Assembly: GCA_951406725.2 (NCBI GenBank)
Contig: OX597818.1
Location: 2,046,001 to 2,110,000, forward strand
Source: Octopus vulgaris
Taxonomy: Eukaryota
Length of the DNA: 64,000 nt
Direction of reading: 5' to 3'
Part shown: positions 8,707-64,000 of the stretch, one piece after another
How the letters are laid out: every line of letters starts with the position of its first letter
How positions within the stretch are numbered: position 1 is the stretch's first letter
The notes under the pieces: model-generated
The model's database searches: none
What the model was told of the DNA's origin: nothing
Seen by the model: only the letters and a program-made list of their open reading frames with translations
Position numbers and translations under genes: made by a program

Positions 8707-8711
<5 letters not shown>

Positions 8712-12300: not shown

Positions 12301-12394
12301 TACATACAAATGCACACACATACATATATACATATATATACATATGCACACACACACATACATGCATACACACACATACATACGTGCATGTGTA

Positions 12395-12425
<31 letters not shown>

Positions 12426-21678: not shown

Positions 21679-22251
21679 AGTGTAGATCGTATACAAGTGG
21701 GTATATATTTATAAAAAAAGAAGTTTGAAAACGCCACTATATAAGATAAATTTTAATTTTCTTAGAAATTTTACATGTTTCGGTTCTTCTTGAAAAAACG
21801 AACCTTATCAGCATTTGGCGACCTCCATCTCCACCACCACCATCATTCGTCCTAACGTCAACATCTCTCTACGTACACAACTCAACAAGCAACTCACCCA
21901 GGTTCCAACACTCCACTGTTCATGAATTACTTCCCTATGGACCAACAGCAAATATACAACCTGCGAGAACTCCTGTACCAAGTGACCCAGGCAGCAGCAT
22001 CACAGCCACAACTTCACGTACATGTACCACAACCGGCTCTGCATCATCGCCGCAACTTCTTGATACAGTATTTCAACTATCGTGTACTATTGACTAGAAC
22101 TGGTGTTTATCATTCTTGTGCCTATGAACTTACTCCTCGTTTCGATGGCTATAGACTGTTTCACTGTCTCTACTTCATCGCCACAAATCGGCGACCCGTT
22201 CCAGCTCCTTGAAACTACAAATGGGAGAAGATAATTTTAATTTTCTTAGAA

Positions 22252-22299
22252 ATTTTACATGTTTCGGTTCTTCTTGAAAAAACGAACCTTATCAAAAAT
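22252..22299 (-). ncRNA. Minimal hammerhead-like motif, U3:A8 variant
   Basis: Reverse complement of 22492-22539. Confidence 0.6.
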
Positions 22300-22491
22300 A
22301 TTTTTAAAAGTGTAATAAAAAAGTTCATAATTGTTTCTTACTGTAAGAAACAATTATGAACTTTTTTATTACACTCAACTTTAAACTTACAGCTATTATG
22401 CTTACTACCGACAAAACACCACCACGTGGATTCTGTTGAGACCAGTAAGAAACAATTATGAACTTTTTTATTACACTTAACTTTTTAAAAT

Positions 22492-22539
22492 ATTTTTGAT
22501 AAGGTTCGTTTTTTCAAGAAGAACCGAAACATGTAAAAT
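22492..22539 (+). ncRNA. Minimal hammerhead-like motif, U3:A8 variant
   Basis: ATTT-TTGATAA-GGTTC-loop-GAACC-GAAAC-AT-GTA-AAAT. Confidence 0.6.
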
Positions 22540-22595
22540 TTCTAAGAAAATTAAGTTATCTTATATAGTGGCGTTTTCAAACTACTTTTTTATAA

Positions 22596-23327: not shown

Positions 23328-23559
23328 GTATGTATGTATGTATGCATGTATGTATGTATGTATGTATGCATATATGCATGTATGTATGTATGTATGTGTG
23401 CATGTATGTATGTGTAGCGGCATAATCAGCCAGCGCCATATTGGATGAGTTCTCGCGGCAGCCATTGCCATCTCCGAGACTGGAGCGAGACCTCACCTGC
23501 ATCCATTTGCCATGCGCGAGATCACAACGAGGCTCGCGATGGAGAAAACTATATAAACG

Positions 23560-24290
23560 GGGATCTTTTCCTTTGGATCGGCAGTTTTCAACACAATTTC
23601 TAGTTAACTGAACACTTTAAAACTTCGTATACTGGCAGAATGTGTCAAAATAAAACATTTTTTTCTCTTGGCTTTCTTGAGAAAATTGTAATTTGTAAGT
23701 TTAACGTAGTTTAATTTTTCGAATTTTAACCAATCTATTTTAACCTCTATTGAGCTAAAATCATTTGCTGCGTCTAAAACTGAGACATCCTGTCACTAAC
23801 CCTAACTCTAACCCTAACCCTCACCCTAACCCTAACCCTAACCCTAAATTTTAGCCTTTCGTTTTTTTTTCTTAATTGTTAAATTAATTTGTTACGCGTG
23901 TGTCTAAAATTATTCGTTTTGTTTTTGTTTTGAGTTTTTGCTTTCGTTTTAGCCTTTCGTTTTTTTTTTTCTTAATTGTTATCCTTAAATTAATTTAACA
24001 ATTAAGAAAAAAAACAAAAGGCTAAAATTTAGGGTTAGGGTGAGGGTTAGGGTTAGTGACAGGATGTTGTCTGTTTTAGACGCAGCAAATGATTTTAGCT
24101 CAATAGAGGCCATGGGATTGGTTAAAATTCGAAAAATTAAACTACGTTAAACTTACAAATTACAATTTTCTCAAGAAAGCCAAGAGAAAAAATGTTTTAT
24201 TTTGACACATTCTACCAGTATATGAAGTTTAAATGTGTTTAGTTAACTAGAAATTGTGTTGAAAACTGCCGTTCAAAAGGAAAAGATCCC
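23560..24290. mobile_element. Foldback MITE with long TIRs containing (TAACCC)n/(GGGTTA)n
   Basis: GGGATCTTTTCCTTT...AAAGGAAAAGATCCC termini; arms complementary over ~300 bp; internal tandem duplication 23847-23880 / 23947-23981. Confidence 0.9.
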
Positions 24291-24499
24291 AGCGTTTTTC
24301 TTTTCGCTTTTTTTTTTTCTTGTGTGTGTGTTGAAAGGAAACAAAAGAAAAAAAAGCAGGTTGGCGACGAAATTTTTTTCTTGTTTGCATTCAGTACACA
24401 ATTCTATAAATTTTGTTATGAATTTTCTTTTCTTCTCGCACACTCGCTATTATTTCCGACAACACTTTTGTCGGTTTTTTTGGTTCATTTCTTTTCTCC

Positions 24500-27400: not shown

Positions 27401-28073
27401 CTAACTGAATTGCTCGCTTTGGTGTCCCTGCTAAAATAACCACTGATCGCGGACTCCAGTTCGAGGTTTCCCTATTTCGTGAATTATCACGAATCCTAGG
27501 AGTTCATTACATTCATACGACCAGCTACCCGCTAGCCTCCAACGGGATGGCTGAACGTTTTCACAGGGAATTGAAGGCCGCCCTACGTGCCACTTCTGAT
27601 CCGCAGTTTTGGACGGAATTCTTGCCTATCGTTCTTCTTGGTTGTTGCACTGCTGTTAAAGCAGACTTAGGTTTCTCCTCTGCTGAACTCCTTTACAGTA
27701 CCACCCTGGTACTCCCTGGTACAATGTTAGCGCCAGACATCTCATCGCCTCCTGATCTAACGTCGTATGTCACCAGACTTCGCCCGTATTTCTCAAGTCT
27801 TCCACCCATGTGTGACCAGTCTATTCCCTCTCACGTCCCTCCGGATATTGATAAATGGACTCATGTTTTGTTCGGGATGATTCTGTCAGAAGACCTCTCA
27901 TTTCTCCTTATAAAGGACCATTTCGTGTGCTATCGCACACACCCAAAACTTTTAGTCTCGACTTGAATGGTCGGGCAGAAACCGTGTCGGTCGACAGACT
28001 TAAAAGGGCTCATTTTGAGGTGTCCACACCCTTCGATGACACCCCAAACACGCCCACCTTCGATCCTTTATAA
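24500..28073 (+). pseudogene. gag-pol pseudogene
   Basis: gag (KQLMEDKELG..PTQFLR), protease (VDTGS), RT (FGLRNA, YVDD), RNase H (VDAS, TDHKPL), integrase ([35 protein letters not shown]). Many stops and frameshifts. Confidence 0.95.
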
Positions 28074-29131
28074 CCACCTACACATCCACCTGCACATGCA
28101 CCTTTGACCACACCATCACCTACACCTTTGTCGCCACTGCCTAACACAAACAAACCCTATGTCACCAAGACTGGCTGCATTGTGCATTATTATTTATATT
28201 TGACATTTTCTTTTGTATTTCCTGTGACAGACAATTGCTTTCTGGTGTTACTGGACAGTTCCAATATTCTACCATTAAACATTTTGTCAAATTTTGTGCA
28301 TGCCAATTTATATTTCTTGCAGTTATTTTCTATTTGACTTGTCACATTTTTGTGCCATGCCTGCTCCAATTATTCTGTTTTCGTACTTCCGCACTCAGTG
28401 GGGAGCCCTTTGTAGTGGCACAAACATATTTGATGAGATCTCGCGGCAGCCATTGCCATCTCCGAGACTGGAGCGAGACCTCACCTGCATCTATTTGCCA
28501 TGCGCGAGATCACAACGAGGCTCGCGATGGAGAAAACTATATAAACGGGAAACCGATTCAGACCAGCCTCTTTGGCTGAACACGAACGCAGGCAGTTTTC
28601 TGCCTGTCTATCTCCAGTGGCTATGCGCCCACACTATCGGAGTTTGAGATGCTAGCTGAGAGCAGCACATTTCACCTTTCCTGTAAATAAACCAGTTGTA
28701 AATAGCATTTATGCTTGAAGTCTTTTCTCTTCGCCTGCCGAAAACCTGAATTACATAAAGAACAAGAAAAAGTGATGGAAGATGATGTTACTCCGATATC
28801 ATTAACCTTGCCTTCCATTACAAAATATGTATGTATGTATGTATGTATGCATGCATGCATGTATGCATGCATGTACGTATGTATGTATGTATGTATCTCT
28901 TTTTATCTTTCACCCACACTCACACGCATAGACACACACACACGCATACACACACTTATACATATACACCTTTATTTGCCCCTATTTCTCATCTAGTTTA
29001 CTTTATTCTCACATTCCATTGCGAAGAGGTTTACGTCTTATAAAGAAATATTTTCCATTATAATGGAATGTGAGAACATGATAAGCATAGTTGAGAGAAT
29101 ATAGTGATAAATATAGGGGAGGGAGAGAGAG

Positions 29132-32100
29132 TATTTCTTTATTCACCATAAAGTTGAGAAAAAAAGGGGACAATACGGGGACAGACAAAACAAACGTTGG
29201 GGGTCAGGGTATCGAATGAGACGAAACGTATGAATAAACAAACAATTAAAATATATACAATTAAATGAGAATGAGTGATTAACACAAAATGAAGCGGAGG
29301 ACGCGGTTGACCCCACAAACCACATACTCACACTGAAGACTTTGCTTTATCCTTTTTTACATTCTCGATTAAATAGGTTCTTTCACTCGCAACATACTTG
29401 CTATAGACTTCCATCTTTTACGAAACACACTTTGTGACAGGCATTTCTTCTCCAGCCTTATTTTCCGTTTCATGTGGAAAACGAAAAAGTCGATTAGCTC
29501 AAGACTGGAGATAAACATGCCTGTTGCAATTCCTTTCACTCTCGTCTTCCACACTACTTCTTTCGCCATAGCAACTACCGAAAGAAAACAGGCTCGCTCC
29601 TCCCTATTCAGGAAGGTCGGCGGAACTATCTTAATTACAGATTCGCTCGACAGTTGTACTCTTCTCGAATGCGACAGCAGGTGTTCGACATAACCCCAGA
29701 GTTCAGTCACCTTGGAGCATTGCACAATCGCGTGCAGGACAGTTTCACTGTCCCTCTTACATCTTGCACAAACCGGCGAAGGTGCACACCCATGTCTAAA
29801 AAGCTTATCTCGAACCGGTAAAGCTTCTCTGTAACATTGCCAGGCCAGGGACTTTTGGTAATTATCCATAGGCCCCGGACCGAATGTTCTTTGGAACAGG
29901 CTGGCCAGTTGATTTTCGTTGAAGCCCAGGGTTTCTCCCAAGACGTCGTCACACTTAAACTCTACTAACCCTCTATAGAAGAAAGCTGTAGTACCCCCGC
30001 CACCGGCGTTGCCCGACTGGGAGAGGAGCACGAGTGCCTGATAGCACTCTACATGCCATACGCCCAACCTCGGTCTACACTTGATCCATGGGTTCAGTTT
30101 GGTAAACGATGTGAACTGTGGAAATAACAGTTTGACGAACGAAGACCACGCCTGCTCACCGTCCAGGTAAAGCCAGAGGTGCCTAAGCCTGAGCGCATGT
30201 CAGCGCATTTTTAGCCACGGCATCCCTAACCCATTCTTCAGCGGCTTTTGGCAGCAAATAGAGCGCCTTACAAGAGATCTGCTGCCCCTCCACAAAAAGC
30301 GAAAGAGCATGCGTTCCAGCTTGCTCAGCCACGAATCGGAGTCAGGCGGTAAGTGATTACAGAGGCGATAAACACCTCTGCAACCTCCGCCCTCCCTTTC
30401 AAGGACAGCTTCCGCTCAGACCAGGTATGAGTTAGGAGAGCCACCTTTCTCGCCACCTCGCTCCAATTCTTCTCTATCTGGAGATCTGGACCTAAACAGA
30501 TTCCAAGCATTTTCACCGGCCCTTCCGTCCAAAGTCCTACGACGCTGTCGGAAGACATCGACTTGCCCCTCCAGGTGCCGAGTTGCAAGCCGACCGATTT
30601 ATCCCGGATGACTTTCGCTCCTGCCAACACTTCGTAGTCCCTTAAAGCCTCACCCACTGTAGGTGCTCGACTCGGGATACGATGACGGTGATGTCGTCCG
30701 CATACGCCGAAGCTGACTTTCCGCACCCTAGATCTTGCGGAGTGCCCCTCATAGTTTCCAACCTCCTCAGCAACGGCTCGAGGGCCAAAACGTAGAGAAG
30801 CGGGGAGAGAGGACACCCTTGACATACCGAACGTTCAATGCGGAACGGCTCCGAAAAGAAACCATTCACCCGAACAACCGATTCGATGTTGCTGTATAAA
30901 GCGTTGATCCATCCGCGGAAGGTCGGGCCGAAGCCAGCCGCCCAGATACTGATGGTCAACCTTATCGAACGCTTTCGATTGGTCCAAGTGGACCATAGTC
31001 CCACCCTTGCCATGAATCCTATTTACCCTTTCTATGGCATAGCGTAGAAAGTGGATATTGTCGTGGATGGTCCTTACAGGGAAGGCGCAAGTTTGCGCCT
31101 CGCCAACAAGTTCACCCACGACCCGTGCCAACCTTTTTGCTAAGACCTTGGCCAAAATCTTCAACTCTGCGTTAAGCAGAGTGATGGGCCGAAGATTATC
31201 AATTAAATCCCCCTTGTTTGGATCCTTTCTTAACAGCGCTACTACCCCTCGGCTCACAGACTTAGGAATTCTCCCGTTCTGCTGCCAGTTGGTGTACACG
31301 CATGCAAGTAGGTGCCCAAACAAGTCTGGCATGCTACTATAGAGTTCGTAAGGCAGACCATCGAGTCCCGGCGATTTGTCCCCGCCGCAGTCTGCCAACA
31401 CATCCTCGACTTCCTTGGCTGTGATCGGCGCCTCACAAGATTCCGCATCCGGCCTCGATAGACGCAGCAAACCGGCTAGGAAGTCTGCGAGCTTCTCCCC
31501 GCGCTCCAGTCCGCTCCTCCTCCCGAATAGCTGGGCGAAATGATCGTGAAACACCTTGCACATCTCCACGGGTTCGTTTCCTGATCGACCATTTGGGCCC
31601 GTCAAAGATCGAATGGTTGAGCTGTTGCCACGCTGGCCCTCTACCACCCGGGCCCATCCGGCTGCGTTGATCCCTTCCTGTCTCATTGCACGGATTTTAG
31701 CCCTGACAATGCACCCTTCATGTTTAGCATTGAGATGTTGGTCAAGTGCCAACCTCGCCGCTAACACTTTCGATGCACTGCCTGACCTCATTGCCTCATC
31801 TATTGCCTTAACTAGTTCCTTTTCTACTTTGTTTCTAGCACTAGCTAATTCTTTGCTAAATCTAATTGACTCACATTTGATGGCTCTTTTCAGGGCGTAC
31901 CACCGTTTGTTGTTGATAATGGATCCGGTTAACGCCCTCATTACTAATTGTTTAATCCGATTCGTGTAAGCTTCACAGTCCAATAGTGACTTGTTTAGCT
32001 TCCAGTACCCGGTACCTCGTCTTCACATGCTATCTATGTCTATCACTTATTTGTGATCGCTGTAGCTGACGATATGGTATTGTGGACAGCTAAGTATTTT

Positions 32101-34505
32101 CTTATCTTTCCTTCTAGTTATGATTCTATCTATGTAAGATCTGGACGACCCGTCGTTTCTTGCCCAGGTCCACGCTGGAGTGTCTGGGTGGTCCAGTCTG
32201 AATCGATCTGCCAACTCGAAACGACTTAGCAGATCGTTGAGGTGAGGTAATCCCCCCCCCTATTCTTTCTCGTGCCAACATAATCTACGCGTGCATCACA
32301 AATCATGCTGAAGTCACCTAGCAATACTAACGTGTTCGACGTGCCAAGAAAATTCTCTAGGCTTTTGAAATACTCTTTCTGCCTGGCTTTTCCTTCGCCG
32401 GGAGCATAGACAGCGACCAGCCTGAACACTTTGCCACTGCTATGCGTCATATCCAAAACGACCAACCTGCCTTCCGGATCTATAAAGACAGTTCTAATCT
32501 CTAAATCCAGGTTTTTTTCTGACCAGCACTGCCACTCCTCCGCCCCCTCCCGGTCGACAGGGAGAAACGTATTTCTCATAGCCGTTTAGAAGGGGCGAAA
32601 AGCCTGCAGCCCACTCAGTCTGGATTCGGTAATTACCACTACATCCAAACGATGCGACCTAAGGTCGTTAAGGAGGTAGCCTTGCTTCCAATACGACCCC
32701 AGGCCGCGAATATTTAAACAACCGAGTTTAAACGAGAATGTGAAAAATTTGTCGAATGTTTAAATCTTACTGTTTTAACGAGAGAGAGGGTGTAATTTCA
32801 CCCTCCTCTTTTCTGTCTGTGAGTGTTGTGTTTTGCGAGGTTATTTTTTTCGCGAATTGCCTGTACAGATGGCTCGAAATGTTCATCTGTAACAGACCGA
32901 CGTCCTCCGCAAAAGATTTTTTAGTTCAAAATAGTCAGAGTTATCTATAGTATATAATTCGACATTTTCAGAAATAGTATTATTTACATCTGTTGCGATA
33001 TATTTTTTCGCCGATTTCATTAAAACAATTTTATCTCTTAATAGTTTATTATTTTTGTTTATCGCCGTGAAGGTGTTTCTCTTTTTTATATATGGCGATT
33101 GTGGAGGGAGGTGTTTGTGGGGGGGTGCTTGTAAAAACGTAGGTGATTGTAGGTGTGTGTGTGCTTGTGGTAGGTGTGGGAGTGTTTGTGTGTGCTTTTT
33201 CCAGTGTGTGTGTTTTTTTGGCTACGTGTGTGTTTGCGACTGTATTTGTGGGTGTGGGTGTGCTTGTCTGTCTCGGAGCATAGTCCTGTGTATCCGAAGA
33301 GGGTGGGTTTTTCCGTTTCCGTCTTCTTTTTGAAGGTTCTACGGTGACCCACTCCTGGATGTTGTCGTTTTTGTTGTTGTTTTCTCCCGCTGTCGGCTGT
33401 ACTTCGGTAATTGGGGTCTGCGACGTGGCTGCTATTTCTAGCGGTGCGGTCGTTGTCTTCGGCGTCGTGCTTGCCTCTTCTGCAGCATTTTCTTTGGTTG
33501 TCTTCTTCTTACAGCTCGACCTTATGTGGCCTTTCGCGCCACATTTGTAATATCTGGGCTTTCTCCCCTCTACTACCACCATCATGCTGGTATTTTCTCC
33601 AATTGTAAGGGAACTGGGCAATTTTTCTAAGTCTGAGGGGTTTGCTTGGATCACAAGCTCTAAATCTTGTCCAAACCAGTTCATGTGGCGGTATCTCTTA
33701 GACTGAAGAATTGCAATTTCTTCTTTGCCTAAGAGAATAGCGGCTATGACAAAGGCCACATCTATTTCGGGTGGAATATCCGTAACTGTGATTTTCGAAG
33801 TTCTCTTTCCTAAGTAAGTCGGGAGGAGAACTACTTCTTCCGACTTCAATGTCCTTGTTGAATGTTCCCTAGCTTTTTCTTCGCTAGGGAAACGCACCTC
33901 TACAGTGCCGAAGCGACGATCCCTCGTTATGTAACTTGTTTGTTGCCATATCGGCCTCAAGCATTTTTCGATCGCTTCCCTCGGTACAAAATCGATTTTT
34001 TTATTTTTGACATTATATGTTTTGTATATGACAGTCTTTCTCTCCGTCGCGTAAATTAATTCACTAGGAGGGAGCAACTTCACATTATCACCTTCTTTTT
34101 TTAATAAACTTTGGTACTTCTTTAATTCTTCTTTTTTCACAGGGTCGAGTTGCTGCACTCGCAAAATTTATTTTTTATTTTTCCTGTTGTGTAGTAGCCT
34201 CGCTAGACATCTTGTCGTCTGCTTTTGTAACGCTCGCGTGAGACGCCTCTTTACTTTCACCTTCCTCCTCCCACATATTCGCCTTCATGCCTGCAAACAA
34301 ATAGTCAACGTTTTCCTCCGACTCGGAAGAAATTGGTGGCAAATTCATGTTTTTTGCCGCTTCCCCCTTGAAACAAGGGGGAAAGAACAGCAAAACTGCT
34401 GCAACAGCAGAAAAGAAGTGGTCTCAACGACCAAAACAACAAATGTTCACAATTTTCAGCATAAAAACAATCTTTCACTGCGGAGCAAAGAATAACACAA
34501 CCGAT
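29132..34505 (-). mobile_element. Full-length but frameshifted Tx1-clade LINE (copy B)
   Basis: ORF1 33049..34164 plus fragments. ORF2 is broken into 32226..32579, 30835..31983, 30642..31013, 30325..30825 and 29369..30067. (GA)n at both ends. Confidence 0.95.
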
Positions 34506-34537
<32 letters not shown>

Positions 34538-34753
34538 CTTTATTCACCATAAGGTTGAAAAAAAGAGGGGACAAAACAAACGTTGGGGTCAGTGTATCGA
34601 ATGAGACGAAACATATGAATAAACAAACAATTAAAATATATACAATTAAATGAGAATGAGTGATTAACAAAAAATGAAGCGGAGGGCGCGGTTGACCCCA
34701 CAAACCACATACTCACACTGAAGACTTTGCTTTATCCTTTTTTACATTCTCGA

Positions 34754-37700
34754 TTAAACAGGTTCTTTCACTCGCAACATACTTGCTATATACTTCCATC
34801 TTTTACGAAACACACTTTGTGACAGGCATTTCTTCTCCAGCCTTATTTTCCGTTTCATGTGGAAAACGAAAAAGTCGATTAGCTTCAGACTGGAGATAAA
34901 CATGCCTGTTGCAATTCCTTTTACTCTCGTCTTCCACACTACTTCTTTCGCCATAGCAACTACCGAAAGAAAACAGGCTCGCTCCTCCCTATTCAGGAAG
35001 GTCGGCGGAACTATCTTAATTACAGATTCGCTCGACAGTTGTACTCTTCTCGAATGCGACAGCAGGTGTTCGACATAACCCCAGAGTTCAGTCACCTTGG
35101 GGCATGGCACAATCGCGTGCAGGACAGTTTCACTGTCCCTCTTACATCTTGCACAAACCGGCGAAGGTGCACACCCATGTCTAAAGAGCTTATCTCGAAC
35201 CGGTAAAGCTCCTCTGTAACATTGCCAGGCCAGGGACTTTTGGTAATTATCCATAGGCCCCGGACCGAATGTTCTTTGGAACAGGCTGGCCAGTTGATTT
35301 TCGTCGAAGCCCAGAGTTTCTCCCAGGACGTCGTCACACTTAAACTCTACTAACCCTCTATAGAAGAAAGCGGTAGTAGCCCCGCCACCGGCGTTGCCCG
35401 ACTGGGAGAGAAGCACGAGTGCCTGATAGCACTCTGCATGCCACATACCCAACCTCGGTCTACACTTGATCCATGGGTTCAGTTCGTTAAACGATGTGAA
35501 CTGTGGATATAACAGCTTGACAAACGGAGACCACACCTGCTCACCGTCCAGGTAAATCCAGAGGTGCCTCAGCCTGAGCGCATGTCTGCGCATTTTTAGC
35601 CACGGCATCCCTAACCCACCGTTCAGCGGCTTTTGGCAGCAAATAGAGCGCCTTACAAGAGGTCTGCTGCCCCTCCGCAAAAAGCGAAAGAGCATGCGTT
35701 CCAGTTTGTTCAGCCACGAATCGGAGCAAGGCACTACGGTTAGGCGGTAAGTGATTACAGAGGCGATAAACACTTCTGCAACCTCCGCCCTCCCTTTCAA
35801 GGACAGCTTCCGCTCAGACAATGTCTGAGTTAGGAGAGCCACCTTTCTCGCCACCTCGCTCCTGTTCTTCTCTATCTGGAGATCTGGACCTAACCAGATC
35901 CCAAGCATTTTCACCGGTCCTTCCGTCCAAAGTCCTACGACGCTGTCGGAAGACATCGACTTGCCCCTCCAGGTGCCGAGTTGCAAGCCGACCGATTTAT
36001 CCCGGATGACTTTCGCTCCTGCCACCGCTTCGTAGTCCCTTAAGGCCTCACCCACCCACTGTAGGTGCTCGACTCGGGAAACGATGACGGTGATGTCGTC
36101 CGCATACGCCGAAGCTGACTTTCCGCACCCTAGATCTTGCGGGGTGCCTCTCATAGTTTCCAACCTCCTCAGCAACGGCTCGAGGGCCAAAACGTAGAGA
36201 AGCGGGGAGAGAGGACACCCTTGACGTACCGAACGTTCAATGCTGAACCGTTCCGAAAGGAAACCATTTACCCGAACTACCGATTCGATGTTGCTGTATA
36301 AAGCGAAGATCCATCCGCGGAAGGTCGGGCCGAAGCCAGCCGCCGCGAGGACCGCCTCCAGATACTGATGGTCCACCCTATCAAACGCTTTCGATTGGTG
36401 CAAGTGGACCATAGGCCTACCCTTGCCAGGAATCCTATTTACCCTTTCTAAGGCATAGCGTAGAAAGTGGAGATTGTCGTGGATGGTCCTTCCAGGGATG
36501 GCGCAAGTTTGCGCCTCGCCAACAAGTTCACCCACGACCCTCGCCAACCTTTTTGCTAAGACCTTGGCCAAGATCTTCAACTCTGCGTTAAGCAGAGTGA
36601 TAGGCCGGAAATTATCAATTAAATCCCCCTTGTTTGGGTCCTTTCTTAACAGCGCTACCACCCCTCGGCTCACAGACTTAGGAATTCTCCCGTTCTGCTG
36701 CCAGTTGGTGTACACGTATGCAAGTAGGTGCCCAAACAAGTCTGGCATGCTACTATAGAGTTCGTAAGGCAGACCATCGAGTCCCGGCGATTTGTCCCCG
36801 CCGCAGTCTGCCAACATATCCTCGACTTCTTTGGCTGTGATCGGCGCCTCACAAGATTCCGCGTCCGGCCTCGATAGACGCGGCGAACCGGCTAGGAAGT
36901 CTGCGAGCTTCTCCCCGCGCTCCAGCTCGCCGCTCCACCCGAATAGCTGGGCGAAATGATCATGAAACACCTTGCACATCTCCTCGGGTTCGGTTACTAA
37001 TCGACCATTTGGGCCCGTCAAGGATCGAATGGTTGAGTTGTTGCCACGCTGGCCCTCTACCACCCGGGCCCATCCGGCTGCGTTGATCCCTTCCTGTCTC
37101 ATTGCACGGATCTTAGCCCTGACAATGCACCCTTCATGTTTAGCGTTGAGATGTTGGTCTAGTGCTAACCTCGGCGCTAACACTTTCGATGCACTGCCTG
37201 ACCTCATTGCCTCCTCTAATGCCTTAACTAGTTCCTTTTCTACTTTGTTTCTAGCACTAGCTAGTTCTTTGCTAAACCTAATTGACTCAAATTTGATGGC
37301 TCTTTTCAGGGCGTACCACCATTTATTGTTGATAATGGATCCGGTTAACGCCCTCATTACTAATTGTTTAATCCGATTCCTGTAGGCTTCACAGTCCAAT
37401 AGTGACTTGTTTAGCTTCCAGTAGCCGGTACCTCGTCTACACATGCTATCTATGTCGAACGTACAGTTTACTAATTTGTGATCGCTGTAGCTGACGATAT
37501 GGTGTTGTGGACAGCTAAGTATTTTCTTATCTTTCCTTCTAGTTATGATTCTATCGATATAAGATCTGGACGACCCGTCGTTTCTTGCCCAGGTCCACTC
37601 TGGAATGTCTGGATGGTCCAGTCTGAATCTATCTGCCAATTCGAAACGACTTAGCATATCGTTGAGGTGAGGTAATCCCCTCGTATTTTTCTCTGAGCCA

Positions 37701-38170
37701 ACATAATCTACGCTTGCATCGCAAATTATGTTGAAGTCACCTAGCAATACTAACGTGTTCGACGTGCCAAGAAAATTCTCTAGGCTTTTGAAATACTCTT
37801 TCTGCCCGGCTTTTCCTTCGCAGGGAGCATAGACAGCGACCAGCCCGAACACTTTACCACTGCTGTGCGTCACATCCAAAACGACCAACCTGCCTTCCGG
37901 ATCTATAAAGACAGTTCTAATCTCTAAATCCAGGTTTTTCCTGACTAGCACTGCCACTCCTCCTCTCTCTCCAGGTCGACAGGGAGAAATGTATTTCTCG
38001 TAGCCGTTTAGAAGGGGCGAAAAAGCCTGCAGCCCACTCAGTCTGGATTCGGTAATTACCACTACATCCAAACGTTGCGACCTAAGGTCGTTAAGGAGGT
38101 AGCCTTGCTTCCAATACGACCCCAGGCCGCGAATATTTATACAACCGAGTTTAAACGAGAATGTGAAAAT
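34754..38170 (-). CDS. LINE ORF2: APE endonuclease + reverse transcriptase + C-terminal CCHC zinc-binding domain
   Basis: NIRGL, ITES, VYAP, GDFN, IDRI, SDH; KSPGLDG, FRPITLLN, KAFDRV, QGCPLSP, YADD; CARC...H....C. The frame is open from 38170 with no AUG near its start. Confidence 0.95.
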   Translation of the reverse strand: MFTFSFKLGCINIRGLGSYWKQGYLLNDLRSQRLDVVVITESRLSGLQAFSPLLNGYEKYISPCRPGERGGVAVLVRKNLDLEIRTVFIDPEGRLVVLDVTHSSGKVFGLVAVYAPCEGKAGQKEYFKSLENFLGTSNTLVLLGDFNIICDASVDYVGSEKNTRGLPHLNDMLSRFELADRFRLDHPDIPEWTWARNDGSSRSYIDRIITRRKDKKILSCPQHHIVSYSDHKLVNCTFDIDSMCRRGTGYWKLNKSLLDCEAYRNRIKQLVMRALTGSIINNKWWYALKRAIKFESIRFSKELASARNKVEKELVKALEEAMRSGSASKVLAPRLALDQHLNAKHEGCIVRAKIRAMRQEGINAAGWARVVEGQRGNNSTIRSLTGPNGRLVTEPEEMCKVFHDHFAQLFGWSGELERGEKLADFLAGSPRLSRPDAESCEAPITAKEVEDMLADCGGDKSPGLDGLPYELYSSMPDLFGHLLAYVYTNWQQNGRIPKSVSRGVVALLRKDPNKGDLIDNFRPITLLNAELKILAKVLAKRLARVVGELVGEAQTCAIPGRTIHDNLHFLRYALERVNRIPGKGRPMVHLHQSKAFDRVDHQYLEAVLAAAGFGPTFRGWIFALYSNIESVVRVNGFLSERFSIERSVRQGCPLSPLLYVLALEPLLRRLETMRGTPQDLGCGKSASAYADDITVIVSRVEHLQWVGEALRDYEAVAGAKVIRDKSVGLQLGTWRGKSMSSDSVVGLWTEGPVKMLGIWLGPDLQIEKNRSEVARKVALLTQTLSERKLSLKGRAEVAEVFIASVITYRLTVVPCSDSWLNKLERMLFRFLRRGSRPLVRRSICCQKPLNGGLGMPWLKMRRHALRLRHLWIYLDGEQVWSPFVKLLYPQFTSFNELNPWIKCRPRLGMWHAECYQALVLLSQSGNAGGGATTAFFYRGLVEFKCDDVLGETLGFDENQLASLFQRTFGPGPMDNYQKSLAWQCYRGALPVRDKLFRHGCAPSPVCARCKRDSETVLHAIVPCPKVTELWGYVEHLLSHSRRVQLSSESVIKIVPPTFLNREERACFLSVVAMAKEVVWKTRVKGIATGMFISSLKLIDFFVFHMKRKIRLEKKCLSQSVFRKRWKYIASMLRVKEPV

Positions 38171-38189
38171 TTAGTTGAATGTTTAAAAC

Positions 38190-39807
38190 TTACTGTTTTA
38201 ACGGAAGAGAGGGTGTAGTTTCACCCTCATCTTTTCTGTCTGTGAGTGTTGTGTTTTGCGAGGTCAGTTTTTTTGCGAATTGCTTGTACAGATGGCTTGA
38301 AAAGTTCATCTGTAACGGGCCTACGTCCTCCGCAAAAGATTTTTTAATTTCAAAATAATCCTCGTTATCTATCGTATAAAATTCTACATTTTCGGATATA
38401 ATACTATTTATATCTGTTGCGATATATTTTTTCGCCGATTTCAGTAAATTAATTTTTTCCCTTAATGGGTTATTGTTTTTATTTATCGCCGTGAAGGTGT
38501 TTCTTTTTTTTTTTTGTTAGGTGATTGTGGAGGGGGCTGTGTGTGTGTGTTTGTGGGTGTGTGTGTGCTTGTAGAAGCGTGGGTGTCTGTAGGTGTGTGC
38601 GTGCTTGTGGTAGGTGTGTGAGTGTTTGTGTGTGCTTTTTCCAGTGTGTGTGTTTTTTGGCTACGTGTGTGTTTGCGACTGTATTTGTGGGTGTGGGTGT
38701 GCTTGTCTGTGTCAGAGTATAGTCCTGTGTATCCGAAGAGGGTGGATTTTTCCGTTTCCGTCTTCTTTTTGAAGCTTCCACGTTGACCCACTCCTGGATG
38801 TTGTTGATGTTGTTGTCATCGTTTTTGTCGTTGTTTTCTCCCGTTGTCGGCTGAATTTCGGCAATTGGGGTGCGCGACGTGGCTGCTATTTCTAGCGGTG
38901 AAGTTGTTTTCGGCGTCGTGCTTGCCTCTGTAGTATTTTCTTTGGCTGTCTTCTTGCAGCTCGACCGTATGTGGCCTTTCTCGCCACATTTATAGCATCT
39001 CGGTTTTCTTCCCTCGACTATTACCATCAAGGTGGTATCTCCAATGGTGAGGGAGCTTGGCAATTTTTCCAAGTCCGAGGGGTTCGCTTGGATCACAAGC
39101 TCTAAGTCCTGTCCATACCAGGTTGTGGGGCGATATCTTTTAGACTGAAGAATGGCAATTTCTTCCTCTTTGCCTAAGAGAATCGCTGCTGTTATAAAAT
39201 CCACCTCGATTTCGGGCGGAATGTCCGTAACCGTTATTCTACTAGTTCTCATTCCTAAATAAAATGGTAAAAGAACTACCTCTTCCGACTTCAACGTTCT
39301 TGTTGAATGTTCCCTAGCTATTTCTTCGCTAGGGAAACGCACCTCTACCGTGCCGAAGCGACTACCCCTTGTTATAAACGTAGTTTGTTGCCATATCGGC
39401 CTCAAACATTTTTCAATGGCTTCTCTCTGTACGAAGTCAATTTTCTTATTTTTGACATTATAAGTCTTGTATATGACAGTTTTTCTCTCCATCGCGTAAA
39501 TCAATTCACTGGGAGGGAACAACTTCACATTATTACCTTCTTTTTTTAGTAGTCCTTGGTATTTCTTTAATTCTTCCTTGTTGATGACTATATTTTCACA
39601 GGGGCGAGTTGCTGCACTCGCAAACTTTATTTTTGCCTTTTCTTGTCGTTTACTAACTTCGCCAGACATATTGTCGTCTGCTTTTGTGACGCTCGCGTGA
39701 GACGTCTCTTTACTTCTACCTTCCTCCTCCCGCATTTTCGCCTTCATGCCTTCAAACAAATTTTCAACGTTTTCCTCCGACTCGGAGGAGACTGGTTGCA
39801 AATTCAT
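38190..39807 (-). CDS. LINE ORF1 (nucleic-acid-binding, CCHC zinc knuckle), frameshifted in A-runs
   Basis: CYKCGEKGHIRSSC. A further open segment RNTFTAINK...TPSLPLKQ* ends at TAA 38190-38192 and is conserved in copy B. Confidence 0.85.
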
Positions 39808-39965
39808 GTCTTTTCGTCACTTCCCCCTTGAAACAAGGGGGAAAGAACAGCAGAGCTCTGCTGCAACAGCAGAAAAGAAGTGGCCTCGACGACCAAAACA
39901 GCAAATTTTCAAACTTTTCAGCACAAAAACAATCTTTCACTGCGGAGCAAAGAATAACACGACCG

Positions 39966-40033
<68 letters not shown>

Positions 40034-43509: not shown

Positions 43510-44127
43510 GTATGCATGTATGTATAAACGTGGCATCTCCAGTCCGACCCGTCCACTTCACACATCTTCCCTAACCGACCCCTCCCCTCCTTCAAACGAG
43601 CCCAAAACCTAGGAGACCTCTTGGTCCACAGCTTCTTCCCCAACCCTACCTCCCAACCTGGCTCGTTCCCCTGCTCCCGCCCAAGCTGTCGCACTTGCCC
43701 TTACCTCTCCAACACCACTCTCCTCACCGGCACCCATCATCGACCCTATCGTATCATCGACTCCTTCACCTGCACCTCAAGCAATATCATCTATTGCACC
43801 TCCTGCTCTCTCTGCCATTCCCTGTACATCGGACAAACGGGACGCCGCTTGGCTGACCGGTTCGTGGAACACCTCGGAGTCATCCGCCTCGGCAATGACA
43901 CTCCAGTCTCACGCCATTTCCGCTCAACCGGTCACTCCTTGCAACACCTGTCTGTGTTCGGATTGTCCTTGCACAGAAGCCATCCGAACTCCCGCTTGCG
44001 CCGTGAACAGGGATTAATCTTCTCTCTTCGCTCTTTTACGCCATTTGGGCTCAACTCTCCCCCCTTTCATCTAACCTCCTCTCCGACTCCTACTTCTCTT
44101 CACTCCTACATCGTTTTGTATATGTAG
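43510..44127 (+). pseudogene. PLE 3' fragment: zinc finger + GIY-YIG endonuclease (Neptune-type)
   Basis: NLGDLLV..., CSRPSCRTC, FTCTSSNIIYCTSC...YIGQTGRRLADRFVEH, RRE, GLN. Confidence 0.85.
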
Positions 44128-48600: not shown

Positions 48601-48661
<61 letters not shown>

Positions 48662-48799
48662 CGGAGATGTACTCGCATAGCAAGTAATTTGATCTGAGAT
48701 CGTGTGCTGAAACGAAAACAATTGCAGCGTGGAAGGTGTTTATAAGCCATTTAAGAAACACACAAAAGCCGTTCGATTCACTCCAACATTTAATTTTAA

Positions 48800-48849
48800 T
48801 TTGTCAAAATATTTTCGTCGCTAAAATCCGCGACCTGTTCACTGACAAA
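48800..48849 (-). ncRNA. Minimal hammerhead-like motif, G3:C8 variant
   Basis: Same stems and core as 8789-8839 with a different stem II loop. Confidence 0.7.
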
Positions 48850-49277
48850 GTCCGTGCTGCATCTAAGAAAGTAACAGTTAGTTCGTCATATATATGTACG
48901 TATGTATGTGTGTATGTATGCATACATGTATGTATGTATGTACGTATGCATGTACGCACATACGCCTGTGTGTGCATTATGTATGTATATATGTACGTGT
49001 GTGTATAAGCACGCACATACATTCTATAAAACATAAAGTTATAAACCTGTAGCGATGGATGGATGTAGAGTGACCACTCATCACAACGCTATCAAATTTC
49101 AACTCCCTACGGCCGAGACTAGAAAGTGAATTTATGACGCTTGCTCACAAGAACTATACCCTAAAATCTATTATCAGATTTTCATCTCTATATCACAGAA
49201 CAAATGTTTTACTATTGTTCGTATGTATATATGTATGTATGTGCGTATGTATGTATGTATGTATGTATGTATGTATG

Positions 49278-49311
<34 letters not shown>

Positions 49312-49876
49312 TGTATGTATGTATGTATGTATGTATGTATGTATGTATGTATGTATGTATGTGTGTATGTATATACGTACGCATGTGCGTATGTATGTAT
49401 ACGCGCTCGTATGCATGTGCCCATGTATGTGTGTGCGTACATGTACGTGCGTATGTACGTGTGCATGCCCATACGTAGGTATGTATGTATGTTTGTATTC
49501 ATGTGCTACGTATGTATGTGAGTGTCTAGGAGAATGGGTAGATGTGTCCGTGAGAGTGTGTACATGTGTATGTGTATGTGAACGTATGTCCGTGTACTGG
49601 CATGTGTCCGTCCAAGTTGTGTACATGACTGTTACTTTGCTGAAGGTTGTATACATATTTACATATATGTTAGTATAGACGCACACACATATATATATAT
49701 GTGTGTGGGTGTGTGTTTGTTCCTCTCATCATCGTCTAACCGTGAATGGATACAACGCCTAGGTGCAACTGTTCGTATCAAACAACGTCTGCTCATACCG
49801 TTGTATATAACTGCACATACGCATTGCAACCTGTATGTAAGGACTACAGGTGAAAGGGAGAGAGAGAGAGGGGTGG

Positions 49877-51886
49877 TTATAGAATAGTCCTTCTGAATGG
49901 GTTCTGGATGTTATTCCATTCGGACTTTCGGTTGAGAGTAGGTTTGTATTCTTGTATACAAACAGCTTCTGTGACCTGTCTCAACATTGCATCGGTGGGA
50001 TGTGTTGATAGGATGTTCAACTTAAGCTCCCCTAAGGATCCCTTGTGGCAGTCTACAGCATGTTGGTAGAAGATGGAGTTTGGCTTCCTTTCAATGTAGT
50101 TGTCCAGGTGTTCTTTGAACCTATCATTGATGCTTCTAGAGGTCTCACCTATGTATGACTCCGGGTTAGCCGCGCAAGCTCCCTCCTGGCACTTAATCTG
50201 GTATACAGTGCCCTTGGTTTTACAATTTACGTGTGGATTTGTCGAACACACTGCACAATTACTCTGACAGGTGATTCTATCAAATGGATATGATCTGCAT
50301 AATGCCGATTTGATAGTCCTACCTGTCTTTTCTACAACTTTAACTTTTAGGCCCGTAGTGCGCAGGACTTTCTTGAATGCCTTACTTAGCTCGTTCTTAG
50401 GTGTGGCGTCAACGAACATCACTCCGTGAAATCTCCTGTTATCGTACCAAGTAACGTTTCTCATCTTTTTGTTGGTGTCCCTCTCTAACCTATTCCTGAA
50501 CTTGTTGCGGTACAGGGGGCATATACCGTTTTCGTCGTTCCCTAGAATGCGTTCGAATCTAGCTTTCGCTCCTTTGTACACCCTGACTCTATCGTCTTGT
50601 GTGTATCCGGAACGTTGCATTCGGAATATATAGTGCTGGATGTGTTGTTGTCGTTCTTGTGGTTGGCATAGTGGTGATACATTCCTCATTACTCTAACTA
50701 AGTCTGCCACTAGGATGTTGAGTTTGGCAGTATCCGACATAGCTGAGTCACTACGGATTACTAGTGGATTAGCCATCGGTTTCTGATAGTGTGAGTGGAG
50801 TATACATGGTTTAATGGTACCATTAACCATAGCGTCTTCCATCCATAGCTCAGTATCTAGGACGGGTAATCGTTTACTGGGGTGTTTAGAGGGGTAGTCT
50901 ATGGTAAGTTTTATACTGCTGTGGATAGAGTCAGCTATGTGTTGTATAGATGTCATCACCTGTTCTTCACTTGGTAGAGGGCCCATAACTGTGTCTGTAT
51001 TACATTTCACAACAAGGTTAATGTCGTCGACGTAACGAGAGTACATAGCCAAGTGGATGTTACGGTTTGCTAGGCACTGTTTAAAACGCTTGTCCCACCA
51101 TACCATGAAGAGGTTAGCAACGTCACCGGCGATCCCCACTCCAATAGCACCGCCTTTCGTTTGCTTATACAGTTTGTTGTCAAATTTAAAAATATGTGTT
51201 TTTAGCGTAAATCTCAGGCTGACACCGATAGCATGTGCGATGGTGGTTCTAATATCGTGTGCACTTGAGGGTGGGTAGTCCGGCTTTGTCCATCCCTGCC
51301 AACGCTCACAGTGAGTCTTCCTGTAAGCCGAGGTAATGGTAGGTGGTCTACCACGTTTGTTACGGGTGGGACAAGCATATAGAAGGTTATTGCGCGACAG
51401 GTATTCATTGGTACACGTCAGGGCCAGGAAGAGCCCTAGTTCATATACATCCACATTCTTAAATATCATACCACTCTCACTAACTATTTCTATACATTTA
51501 TCGACAGCAAAGTCTATATCGATGGAGGGGTACAGTGATACCACATCCATGCTACCCACGATGTGGTTCTTGAGGTCACACGTGTTGTTGCATTCGCGGA
51601 TCCTGCTAAGGAGGTCCTCAGTACTGTCACATACATCTGCAGATAGTTCTATTAACGGTCGTAGGAATTGTGAGAGAAAGTATGATATTTTGTGGTTGTT
51701 TGCATTGTTGGCACCACAAACGGGTCGGGTGGGTGGCCCAAGTATATGGTCCGTGTGGCTCTTGTGATCTTTGCGAAGGCCATATAGGGGTGGGATTTCG
51801 TAGTTGGTGATTAAGAAGTTGTTAGCTGTGCGCTTCTCCGACTGGAGAATTATACTCCACATCCCCATGTGAGCATTGACGATCTT
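49877..51886 (-). CDS. PLE reverse transcriptase + GIY-YIG endonuclease (N-terminally truncated)
   Basis: Uninterrupted frame: PLYGLRKDHK, RPVC, SMDVVSLYPSI, QTKGGAIG, RYVDDI, VLD, CQSNCAVC, VYQIKC...YIGETSRS..RFKEH, E, LN. The first ~49 codons of the computed 718-aa ORF come from the inverted arm. Confidence 0.95.
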   Translation of the reverse strand, partial: KIVNAHMGMWSIILQSEKRTANNFLITNYEIPPLYGLRKDHKSHTDHILGPPTRPVCGANNANNHKISYFLSQFLRPLIELSADVCDSTEDLLSRIRECNNTCDLKNHIVGSMDVVSLYPSIDIDFAVDKCIEIVSESGMIFKNVDVYELGLFLALTCTNEYLSRNNLLYACPTRNKRGRPPTITSAYRKTHCERWQGWTKPDYPPSSAHDIRTTIAHAIGVSLRFTLKTHIFKFDNKLYKQTKGGAIGVGIAGDVANLFMVWWDKRFKQCLANRNIHLAMYSRYVDDINLVVKCNTDTVMGPLPSEEQVMTSIQHIADSIHSSIKLTIDYPSKHPSKRLPVLDTELWMEDAMVNGTIKPCILHSHYQKPMANPLVIRSDSAMSDTAKLNILVADLVRVMRNVSPLCQPQERQQHIQHYIFRMQRSGYTQDDRVRVYKGAKARFERILGNDENGICPLYRNKFRNRLERDTNKKMRNVTWYDNRRFHGVMFVDATPKNELSKAFKKVLRTTGLKVKVVEKTGRTIKSALCRSYPFDRITCQSNCAVCSTNPHVNCKTKGTVYQIKCQEGACAANPESYIGETSRSINDRFKEHLDNYIERKPNSIFYQHAVDCHKGSLGELKLNILSTHPTDAMLRQVTEAVCIQEYKPTLNRKSEWNNIQNPFRRTIL

Positions 51887-53254
51887 TTCGACAAATCCAC
51901 ACGTAAATTGTAAAACCAAGGGCACTGTATACCAGATTAAGTGCCAGGAGGGAGCTTGCGCGGCTAACCCGGAGTCATACATAGGTGAGACCTCTAGAAG
52001 CATCAATGATAGGTTCAAAGAACACCTGGACAACTACATTGAAAGGAAGCCAAACTCCATCTTCTACCAACATGCTGTAGACTGCCACAAGGGATCCTTA
52101 GGGGAGCTTAAGTTGAACATCCTATCAACACATCCCACCGATGCAATGTTGAGACAGGTCACAGAAGCTGTTTGTATACAAGAATACAAACCTACTCTCA
52201 ACCGAAAGTCCGAATGGAATAACATCCAGAACCCATTCAGAAGGACTATTCTATAACCACCCCTCTCTCTCTCTCTCCCTTTCACCTGTAGTCCTTACAT
52301 ACAGGTTGCAATGCGTATGTGCAGTTATATACAACGGTATGAGCAGACGTTGTTTGATACGAACAGTTGCACCTAGGCGTTGTATCCATTCACGGTTAGA
52401 CGATGATGCGAGGAACAAACACACACCCACACATATATATATATATGTGTGTGCGTCTATACTAACATATATGTAAATATGTATACAACCTTCAGCAAAG
52501 TAACAGTCATGTACACAACTTGGACGGACACATGCCAGTACACGGACATACGTTCACATACACATACACATGTACACACTCTCACGGACACATCTACCCA
52601 TTCTCCTAGACACTCACATACATACGTAGCACATGAATACAAACATACATACATACCTACGTATGGGCATACACACGTACATACGCACGTACATGTACGC
52701 ACACACATACATGGGCACATGCATACGAGCGCGTATACATACATACGCACATGCGTACGTATGTACATACACACATACATACATACATACATACATACAT
52801 ACATACATACATACATACATACATACATACATACATACATACATACATACATACATACATACGCACATACATACATACATACATACGAACAATAGTAAAA
52901 CATTAGTTCTGTGATATAGAGATAAAAATCTGATAATAGATTTTAGGGTATAGTTCTTGTGAGCAAGCGTCATAAATTCACTTTCTAGCCTCGGCCGTAG
53001 GGAGTTGAAATTTGATAGCGTTGTGATGAGTGGTCACTCTACATCCATCCATCGCTACAGGTTTATAACTTTATGTTTTATAGAGTGTATGTGCGTGCTT
53101 ATACACACACGTACATATATACATACATACATACATGCACACACAGGCGTATGTGCGTACATGCATACGTACATACATACACACATGTATGCATACATAC
53201 ACACATACATATATATGACGAACTAACTGTTACTTTCTTAGATGCAGCACGGAC

Positions 53255-53304
53255 TTTGTCAGTGAACAGGTCGCGGATTTTAGCGACGAAAATATTTTGA
53301 CAAA
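53255..53304 (+). ncRNA. Minimal hammerhead-like motif, G3:C8 variant (inverted arm copy)
   Basis: TTTGTCA-GTGAACAG-GTCGC-GGATTTTA-GCGAC-GAAAATATTT-TGACAAA. Confidence 0.7.
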
Positions 53305-53385
53305 TTAAACTTAAATGTTGGAGTGAATCGAACGGCTTTTGTGTGTTTCTTAAATGGCTTATAAACACCTTCCACGCTGCAATTG

Positions 53386-53443
<58 letters not shown>

Positions 53444-62254: not shown

Positions 62255-62300
62255 AACACAACGTTTCGGCTGATATACCCTCCAGCCTTCATCAGGTGTC
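62255..62300 (-). ncRNA. Minimal type I hammerhead ribozyme in the PLE tail
   Basis: GACAC-CTGATGAA-GGCTG-loop-CAGCC-GAAAC-GTT-GTGTT. Confidence 0.85.
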
Positions 62301-62468: not shown

Positions 62469-64000
62469 GTGGGCAATTATGGAGTGAATTTTTAAGGCTT
62501 ATAAATCTAATATTTTCCTATCCTTCCTTAATACTGGTTCCCATATGCTATTCATATCTGAACTCAGTCTGCTTAGAAGGTTGTTGTGTCCTAGCATATG
62601 AGCCGCTTCTTTCAGTTTTCGTATTTTCCAGTGGTGTTCTCTGTCTATTATTTTAAGTTCATCCCACAGTGGGAGGTGGTCTCCATTTTTCCATTCATGA
62701 TCAGCTATACCCAATTTATCAATATCTCCTCATGTCACAGCTTTCCTCTATCCTTATTTTGAGGGGGCGGTATGTTTCGCCTTTGTATAACCTACCACAG
62801 CTGCATGGGATGGAGTACACGCAGTTTTTGGTCATATTCTCTTCTATTGGTGGTTTTACTCGAAGGAGATATTTGCGAAGTGTTGTATTACTCTTGAATA
62901 CTGTCCTGATGGGCCGCATATCTTTTGTATCTTTTCAGAGAGGCATTTCACATAGGGTAGACATACTGTGGACAGTTTACTGGTTTCATCCTCTCTTTTC
63001 TTCATAATTGGAGTAGATAGTATGTTTTTGGGGTAGTTGCGGCTTAATAGATTGTTACTGAGCTTGATCATTTCTTCGTGGTGGGTATCACGATCGCTGC
63101 TTATATTTTTTGCGCGATATTTTAGGCACTGAGCAATCCCTCTCTTTACACTGTGTGGATGGTAGGAATTGAAGTTAAGGTATCTTCCAGTGAAGGTCGG
63201 CTTGCGGTATACGTATGTCCTGAATCCATACTTGGTGCGTGTTATTAATACGTCCAGGAATGCTAGCAGATTTTCTTTTTCCTTTTCCATTGTGAACTGT
63301 ATTGATGGCTTTATTGAGTTCACAAGATCTAACAGCACTTGGACATCTTCCTGGTGGGGCCAGAGTATAAAAGTGTCATTAACATATCGCAGCTATAGGG
63401 TTGGTTCTAGTGGTGTTGATACTAAAACCAAATTCTCAAAGTATTCCATGTATATATTGACTATTATAGGAGATAATGGTGAACCCATTGCTAAACCCTC
63501 TTCTTGTCGATATATATCAGTGTCCATACTGAAATAGGTAGTTTCTACACAGAAGGTCAACATTTCCATCAAGTTTCTTATTGGTATACTAGTGCGTTCT
63601 TTTAGATAGGTGTCTATCACTAGTTTCTCTTGAATCACCGATAGTGCTTCATCAGTTGGGACTTTGGTGAACAGACTTATCACATCTTGACTCGCCATCT
63701 GGTTGGATCCAATGGAAATATCCTTAATCAATTCTGTGAAGTGGGTGGAATTCTTTACGTACGATGTTGACTTTCTTGCTAATGGACTGATTATATCCAC
63801 AAGGAAGCGGCTCAATGGATGACATTCTGAACCTCTACCGTTCACTATAGGTCTAAATGGAATACCATCCTTATGAATTTTAGCGAGACCGAATAAGTGT
63901 GGTAGTTTACTGTAGTGTTGAGTCAGTTGTCTGTATTTCATTGGTGTAAAGTGATCCTTGTTCTTTGATCAAGATCTGTAACAACTTCCTCTCTATTTTC

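Follow-up and report, generated by a model that had tools for sequence, protein, structure and literature searches.

The module of about 145 nucleotides that recurs in the analysed window (a stretch of 64 000 nucleotides of Octopus vulgaris DNA, to which all positions refer) was identified as the pLTR of a single Penelope-like lineage, termed B, which contains a predicted minimal hammerhead with a G3:C8 core together with the start of the B ORF. The copy at 8707 was assigned as a lone copy of an older B subfamily, likely inserted into a simple repeat behind an unrelated element of a second family, A. We give this reading a probability of roughly 0.8. The features on which it draws are collected in Table 1.

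Table 1. Positions of the lineage B and family A features in the window.
Feature	Position	Strand	Remarks
Optional tail of the B pLTR	48660–48716	−	Approximately codons 12–31; its two ends, taken from copy ends, are likely RT start sites
pLTR of young subfamily B1	48717–48864	−	Likely transcription start at 48864, hammerhead, 5′ UTR and first 11 codons; also found ahead of the full ORF in L121 and L122
Start codon of the B ORF inside the module	48748–48750	−	Module nt 112 (window 48750); frame counted from the ATG
Minimal type I hammerhead motif	48800–48849	−	G3:C8 core at 48842–48836, extra G, predicted cut between 48807 and 48806
B 3′ UTR	48865–49876	−	Rich in simple repeats
5′-truncated B ORF	49877–51886	−	RT with long insert between motifs A and B, thumb, CX3CxxC linker, C-terminal GIY-YIG endonuclease
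Inverted 5′-truncated B partner copy	51887–53387	+	Ends at the first RT start site in (TA)n
Features of the partner copy		+	Hammerhead 53255–53304, cut after 53297, ATG 53354
Lone pLTR of older B subfamily	8707–8852	−	Loop II GGUCUCAAA; between (TG)n and (TA)n; hammerhead 8789–8839
pLTR of family A	8868–9084	−	U3:A8 hammerhead at about 9060–9024 (damaged in the window copy), ATG 8955, about 29 codons homologous to the B N-terminus
Broken, 5′-truncated family A ORF	9780–11651	−	RT and C-terminal GIY-YIG
Inverted partner of the A 3′ end	11834–12612	+	A hammerhead at about 12481–12518; no B module

The lineage B element and its junction with family A

Positions 48717–48861 and 8707–8852 were compared within the 64 kb window and showed 89.7% identity across 146 nt (E = 2e-50); a further copy was located at 53243–53387 on the + strand. 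The 16 differences between the first two copies fall on 5/9 positions of loop II, 0/42 positions of the stems, core and stem III and 11/95 positions elsewhere (one of the 11 being an end gap), a clustering with Fisher p values of 0.018 and 0.0008 in this two-copy comparison. The adjoining proteins are 38–52% identical and the 3′ UTRs of the two elements can be aligned in simple repeats only. The first-pass annotation of this DNA was borne out in its estimate of about 90% likeness, in its view that the differences gather in the stem II loop and leave stems and core identical, and in its description of diverged proteins and of 3′ UTRs that otherwise do not align; its G3:C8 layout and AAUAUU palindrome were both read again on the − strand, and its predicted cleavage after 53297 (+) was confirmed in position. 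Since the B ATG lies inside the module, the conserved 80 nt that it had noted downstream of the ribozyme can be identified as the B 5′ UTR, the start codon and the first codons.

In full-length B copies (L093/L122 and L099/L121) the module also stands before the ORF, and full B elements are flanked by it on both sides, with a unit length of ∼4.26 kb. The frame from the module ATG reaches the RT in L121 (with one stop) and is open for 129 codons in L122. In L122, L115 and L117–120 the 5′ pLTR of full elements is preceded by 3′ UTR sequence. A B1 copy with a 1,025-codon open frame was observed at G000:C25:44301491 (−); together with many copies of 99–100% identity it suggests very recent B1 activity. 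In rotifer pLTRs the 5′ UTR and first codons likewise lie inside (PMC3846280), and the same anatomy as that of B is described in PMC3846280, PMC11167929 and PMC4209133.

Family A was found to have a complete, homologous pLTR of its own, the U3:A8 hammerhead of which gave 19 descriptor matches in 30 loci. The N-termini of A and B are homologous by local alignment (1/5,000 shuffles); BLASTP of the two N-termini (29–32 aa) found nothing. Ten of 20 elements picked on the A ORF (from 39 other listed matches) end in A's own pLTR, and the module stood in sense behind that pLTR in none of the 20. Of the 30 best matches to the last 220 nt of A, one, the window copy itself, is followed by the module; genome-wide, 2/4,075 exact A ends are. 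The 8707 variant is 92–96% like the modules beside older B ORFs (L123, L126, L133 and L135). In the eight of 15 examined B loci in which an older ORF and the module occur together, identity to B1 is 78–89% for the module and 80–89% for the ORF. The 90% is thus ordinary subfamily divergence; as A has a homologous pLTR of its own at its end, the figure can be explained without invoking special constraint or a swap.

The first-pass annotation had regarded the module as an RNA terminus shared by two diverged families, either constrained (a ribozyme plus a promoter or RT signal) or swapped as a tail between them. The hammerhead and the promoter or RT-start idea were supported; the sharing and the swap were not. 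The contrast between 90% module identity and ∼45% protein identity in the window favours a common terminus, but A's own terminus, the rarity of the junction and the parallel divergence of module and B ORF, a comparison that the annotation had itself suggested, make it scarcely credible. A one-step chimera, in which the RT copied a B start fragment and then switched to A RNA, is distinctly improbable. It would account for the common orientation of the two parts, which lie 20 nt apart, for a second A-plus-module junction (L016/L136) and for L382, in which a B fragment lies in the A UTR and A's end is missing; at the window junction the A end differs by 4.6% from its family majority and the module by 2.1%, an age gap too small for ordering and therefore compatible with a single step. 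It is opposed by the simple repeat between the parts in both junctions, by the unequal ages in L136 (the module, at 99.5%, is young and the A end before it, at 88.5%, is old), by L381, one of the 20 elements picked on the A ORF, where B sits in reverse orientation within the terminal (TA)n of A, and by the count itself, two junctions among 4,075 ends being no family. Insertion of a lone pLTR is preferred, and B's preference for (TA)n would have put this copy behind A.

Several further repeats were recorded in the window. A tandem pair of two-ORF LINEs (29119–34505 and 34520–39967, −), 87% identical, carries a zinc-knuckle ORF1 and an APE-RT ORF2 of 1138 aa that is open in the second copy. A decayed Gypsy-like pol with protease, RT and integrase fragments lies at 25027–27966 (+), and an inverted repeat at 23800–24064, flanked by short TTAGGG-like telomeric runs, lies inside a palindrome at 23555–24297.

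The G3:C8 hammerhead motif

On the coding strand the motif begins with a 7-bp stem I, followed by GUGAACA, a single additional G, a 5-bp stem II, GAAA, the palindrome AAUAUU, U17 and the other arm of stem I, with cuts predicted after 53297 (+), 48807 (−) and 8796 (−). The features of a minimal type I hammerhead are present (stems I and II, U4, G5, A6, A9, GAAA, A15.1–U16.1 and H17); the canonical C3:G8 is absent and the 3:8 pair itself is kept as G3:C8. No match of equal score was obtained with the descriptor in ten shuffled windows, and a search of Rfam at E ≤ 1 showed no hammerhead family in the 150 listed matches out of 155. Genomic matches of the module were collected, as the first-pass annotation had proposed. 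With positions 3 and 8 left free, the 5′ half of the core was matched exactly at least 7,054 times; of the first 100 matches listed, 95 are G3:C8, five carry single changes and none is C3:G8. Both core halves and both stem I arms are matched by 5,011 genome copies, and a natural G3:C8 core is fixed in more than 5,000 copies. In one copy (L327, G000:C3:22960384) the AAUAUU palindrome of stem III has grown into a (TA)n run and the module is otherwise intact.

The palindromic 15.2–16.2 (AAUAUU) needed for dimer formation is present. Folding energies were less distinctive: the dimer fold (−28.8 kcal/mol) has very little advantage over a pair of monomers (2 × −14.1 kcal/mol), the predicted minimum fold (−32.7 kcal/mol) differs from the hammerhead dimer fold and the fold z-scores are weak (−2.2 and −1.1).

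Comparison of A with B revealed pairs that had changed on both sides: the 3:8 pair (U3:A8 versus G3:C8), one pair of stem II (U-A versus C-G) and two pairs of stem I. Of 66 metagenome loci, 24 were scanned with a strict descriptor, and a relaxed descriptor was applied to the eight closest with room behind the ORF; L233 (U3:A8) and L234 (C3:G8) were recognised, and in four of the eight no recognisable hammerhead was found behind the ORF with the relaxed descriptor. Two variant cores were read by eye, at L230:4960–5020 (C3:G8 with U15.1–A16.1) and L231:2490–2535 (U3:A8 with C at position 9). Region-wise mutation rates inside subfamilies were set aside, since the copies had been chosen and classed on core motifs. 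Because subfamily differences are few and genomic copies decay neutrally, the case for selection rests mainly on covariation between families in a handful of elements; it suggests that the hammerhead is kept by selection.

Two other hammerhead-like motifs were observed in the window. A canonical C3:G8 minimal hammerhead with the palindrome ACGU, at 62255–62295 (−), lies in the 3′ end of another Penelope-like element, behind a broken RT–EN ORF at 62500–63968 (−). A short repeat with a U3:A8 hammerhead-like core and the palindrome ACAUGU forms an inverted pair at 22250–22350 (−) and 22445–22560 (+); a relative of it was seen in L090 and another U3:A8 type in L069.

Natural U3:A8 hammerheads are in print (PMC4209133, PMC3088659), G3:C8 has been published as an engineered partial rescue (PMC11167929, PMC8495972, PMC3884650) and U17 is also present in hammerheads of the Hydra clade (PMC8557442). 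In literature searches, which a mention in supplementary material may have escaped, no published case of a natural G3:C8 hammerhead was found, nor any report of octopus PLE hammerheads. Hammerheads in pLTRs have been known since 2014 (PMC4209133); what is new about the G3:C8 motif, judged from its sequence, is the core variant, the ribozyme and its position having been known before. The descriptor of 2014 requires CUGANGA (PMC4209133), and a natural G3:C8 core in thousands of copies implies that the standard CUGANGA search misses whole ribozyme families. The natural series C3:G8, U3:A8 and G3:C8 within one clade would be suited to rate comparisons.

Ends of the lone copies and a proposed route of reverse transcription

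Sixty sites, chosen on the core alone, were taken from the first 72 listed on contig C1 after five inverted partners, five already examined sites and two variant-core sites had been left out. Fifty-three of them are lone pieces, 30 of which have a short inverted partner, and the remaining seven have B 3′ UTR upstream of the module; continuation into the ORF and B ORF DNA within 1.5 kb were found in 0/60. An independent short repeat without linkage to PLE ORFs, which the first-pass annotation had set against its own view, thus describes most sampled copies as to their isolation, but the pieces are the pLTR of B. The 60 loci contain at most two core matches per 3 kb. Seven loci on G000:C1 (L179, L181, L215, L216, L219, L220 and L222), each a lone pLTR with an inverted partner, have shared flanks and were therefore counted as one event amplified inside another repeat. 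The 3′ ends fall at module nt 139–150 (29 copies), at 190–208 (28 copies) or elsewhere (three copies).

Thirty copies were picked solely on the sequence 3′ of the cut. Not one of them begins at the cut: the 5′ ends of 25 lie between −4 and +14, two run into the UTR and three halt the ungapped walk at a loop indel and continue upstream in the flank. An extra G precedes the A matching 48864 in 26/45 copies that begin there without UTR (p = 3e-6 against 25%), and UTR-linked copies have T or C at this position in 14/14 cases. At least 161 5′ ends are joined to (TA)n at the start site (107 in older subfamilies and 54 exact ones in the youngest), a count inflated by the two more bases that match (TA)n there than at other positions. 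Eight are joined to (TA)n at the cut, compared with 6, 2, 0 and 3 at four control positions. This exceeds the control mean (p = 0.007–0.02) and does not exceed the highest control (p = 0.40), so that a minor class from cut RNA is possible. The start site at the A matching 48864 resembles an initiator. A single start site, a frequent extra G, two end sites and few starts at the cut together indicate that the lone copies likely derive from capped, uncut RNA. An untemplated G has been taken as the sign of a copied cap in L1 (PMC9341517); it could alternatively be a non-templated addition by the RT, and literature searches found no report of a cap-derived G in PLEs. An excess of depth over the module relative to the ORF in four presumed RNA runs was rejected as a sign of expression or of RNA ends, since it was also present in four DNA or unlabelled runs.

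These observations may be combined as follows. RNA polymerase II would start ∼15 nt upstream of stem I, and the RT–endonuclease would nick (TA)n and begin copying at either of two sites within the first 31 codons. Initiation at the first of these sites on capped, uncut RNA would yield a 145- or 205-nt copy reaching the cap (extra G), i.e. a lone copy; initiation at the same site in the downstream pLTR would yield 3′ fragments and full elements. Hammerhead cleavage would be slow, proceeding as a dimer through AAUAUU or with the help of protein, and the swapped pair and U17 probably lower its rate, so that most templates stay whole. The overall proposal, to which we attach somewhat less than even odds, is that the natural G3:C8 hammerhead is functional but attenuated, leaving most template RNAs intact, in an unnamed Penelope-like clade joining a C-terminal endonuclease to a telomerase-sized IFD-position insert, and that the lone pLTRs, in their thousands, document how PLE reverse transcription proceeds in vivo from two internal start sites as far as the RNA cap, a small class of them having been made from ribozyme-cut RNA.

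The same anatomy could be combined with a hammerhead that is dead or nearly so, G3:C8 having hitch-hiked in a successful lineage and the sequence being kept for promoter function, folding or protein binding. The scarcity of module copies starting at the cut fits such a loss, as do the poor cutting of minimal hammerheads in vitro (PMC4209133) and the account of the lizard element in PMC11167929, where insertion in vitro proceeds without need for cleavage and no RNA reads end at the cut. We nevertheless think it unlikely, because the 3:8 pair is Watson–Crick in every relative with a recognised core (B, A, L233 and L234, and L230 and L231 by eye), pairing that a double change by drift would not be expected to keep, and because an engineered C3G/G8C change partly rescues cleavage (PMC11167929, PMC8495972). 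Quite unlikely, too, is a circular template, as proposed in PMC4209133: two pLTR hammerheads would cut as a dimer and the unit-length RNA, once circularised, would serve as template for 3′ fragments, for tandems and for full elements, linear capped RNA giving rise to the lone copies alone. In its favour, full elements with 3′ UTR before the 5′ pLTR exist, and a re-ligated junction would be traceless in DNA, but tandem read-through or a template jump yields the same structures and the in vitro system used uncut linear RNA (PMC11167929). That the lone copies form a SINE-like non-autonomous family, copied from lone masters, is improbable. The number of core matches (at least 7,054) speaks for such a family, since candidates for the 5′ portion of the ORF number a few hundred. 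Lone and ORF-linked copies, however, have the same subfamily variants and both 3′ ends, no flank has been carried over except in the group of seven loci amplified inside another repeat, and in the lizard element the RNA has to include ORF sequence from beyond the RT start sites (PMC11167929), a part that is missing from lone copies. Copying from capped, largely uncut B RNA is thus retained as the preferred route; the ends of the lone copies lend genomic support, in a second clade, to internal RT start on uncut PLE RNA as observed in vitro, and suggest a direct origin of solo pLTRs as short cDNAs that extend to the cap.

Clade placement and comparison with known systems

B has a single ORF with a telomerase-like RT and a GIY-YIG endonuclease, together with pLTRs, a tail and an inverted 5′-truncated partner, as in EN+ Penelope-like elements. 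The B protein was not recognised by Pfam, so that its identity as a PLE rests on motifs, homologues and fold. A total of 294 homologues of the B lineage (window 49877–51886, −; P0001–P0129) were obtained at E ≤ 1e-40, the closest named protein being a hypothetical protein from Octopus vulgaris (58%). A structure model (pLDDT 80.6) gave TERTs as the best PDB matches (E = 4e-6). The N-terminal region of one relative (L230:1–6055) contains extended low-complexity repeats as well as a coding insert of unrelated sequence, reminiscent of the long inserts in the ORFs of rotifer Penelope elements. Two fragments of further Penelope-like families were also seen in the window, one with a Neptune-like GIY-YIG domain (43528–44127, +) and one with an RT thumb piece resembling the Hydra type (13561–13920, −).

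The assignment of both elements to Naiad by the first-pass annotation was abandoned, the endonuclease being C-terminal in A as well as in B; no GIY-YIG motif was seen by eye in the N-terminus of L121 or L122. By the definition of Craig et al. (2021; PMC8557442), Naiads carry the endonuclease at the N-terminus, have DKA and lack canonical hammerheads. Unlike this, the DKG motif reads DKS in L121 and L122. B has a full minimal hammerhead fold, but the core of this fold would escape the CUGANGA descriptor used to define the absence in Naiad. B is like Naiad in having an insert in the IFD position, (TA)n targets and inverted partner copies; the insert, matched by position, is ∼70 aa long in B, against ∼20 aa between RT3(A) and RT4(B) in the Naiad definition. 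With Nematis and Neptune, B shares the C-terminal GIY-YIG domain, the linker zinc finger (CX2-5CxxC; CX3CxxC in B, with Nematis-like spacing when set against Fig. S2 of PMC8557442), the CCHH residues and (TA)n targets. It differs from them in DKS, in its IFD-position insert and in the 131 aa from motif A to motif B. This distance is 129–187 aa in 87 of 129 B homologues, those in which both motifs were matched, and ∼61 aa in Penelope, 84 aa in a Naiad and 118 aa in human TERT as counted from Fig. S1 of PMC8557442. The Hydra clade (DKT, CxCX5C, no CCHH, <3 kb) was rejected on the DKS, CX3CxxC, CCHH residues and ∼4.26 kb of B. A non-LTR retrozyme (tandem arrays of canonical type I hammerheads) was rejected as well, the module copies being lone or accompanied by a short inverted partner. 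A B-type lineage is absent from the clades aligned in Fig. S1 of PMC8557442. On its motifs and spacings, the combination of a long RT insert with a C-terminal endonuclease does not appear to fit the published clade scheme.

The B hammerhead resembles the minimal type I hammerheads of metazoan PLEs (Cervera and de la Pena, 2014; PMC4209133) in its pLTR position, the extra nucleotide between 9 and 10.1, G10.1–C11.1, the palindromic stem III and the occurrence of mostly single copies. The U3-A8 variant of the Schistosoma elements described there matches family A. Unlike these, B has a G3:C8 core, beyond the reach of their descriptor (^cuganga), and its stem I is longer (7 bp) and its stem II shorter (5 bp) than in the Schistosoma families.

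In the lizard element PAc, an Anolis Poseidon (Frangieh et al., 2024; PMC11167929), the ORF likewise begins in the pLTR, the tail is delimited by a pair of internal RT start sites, targets are AT-rich and uncut RNA is the main template, the ribozyme needing protein; the end pattern of B agrees with such internal starts on uncut RNA. The C3G/G8C double mutant of PAc partly restores cleavage; the G3:C8 pair engineered there is natural in B. The ATG lies 56 nt after the cut in B and before the cut in PAc, and the B tail differs from that of PAc in being ∼60 nt long.

The Penelope pLTRs of Adineta vaga (Arkhipova et al., 2013; PMC3846280) have an initiator-like motif, inverted 5′ partners and solo copies, and hold the first 12 codons (22 with the tail), similar to B. 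Their solos are few and were ascribed to recombination or deletion, whereas those of B number thousands and have sharp ends, which points to direct short reverse transcripts.
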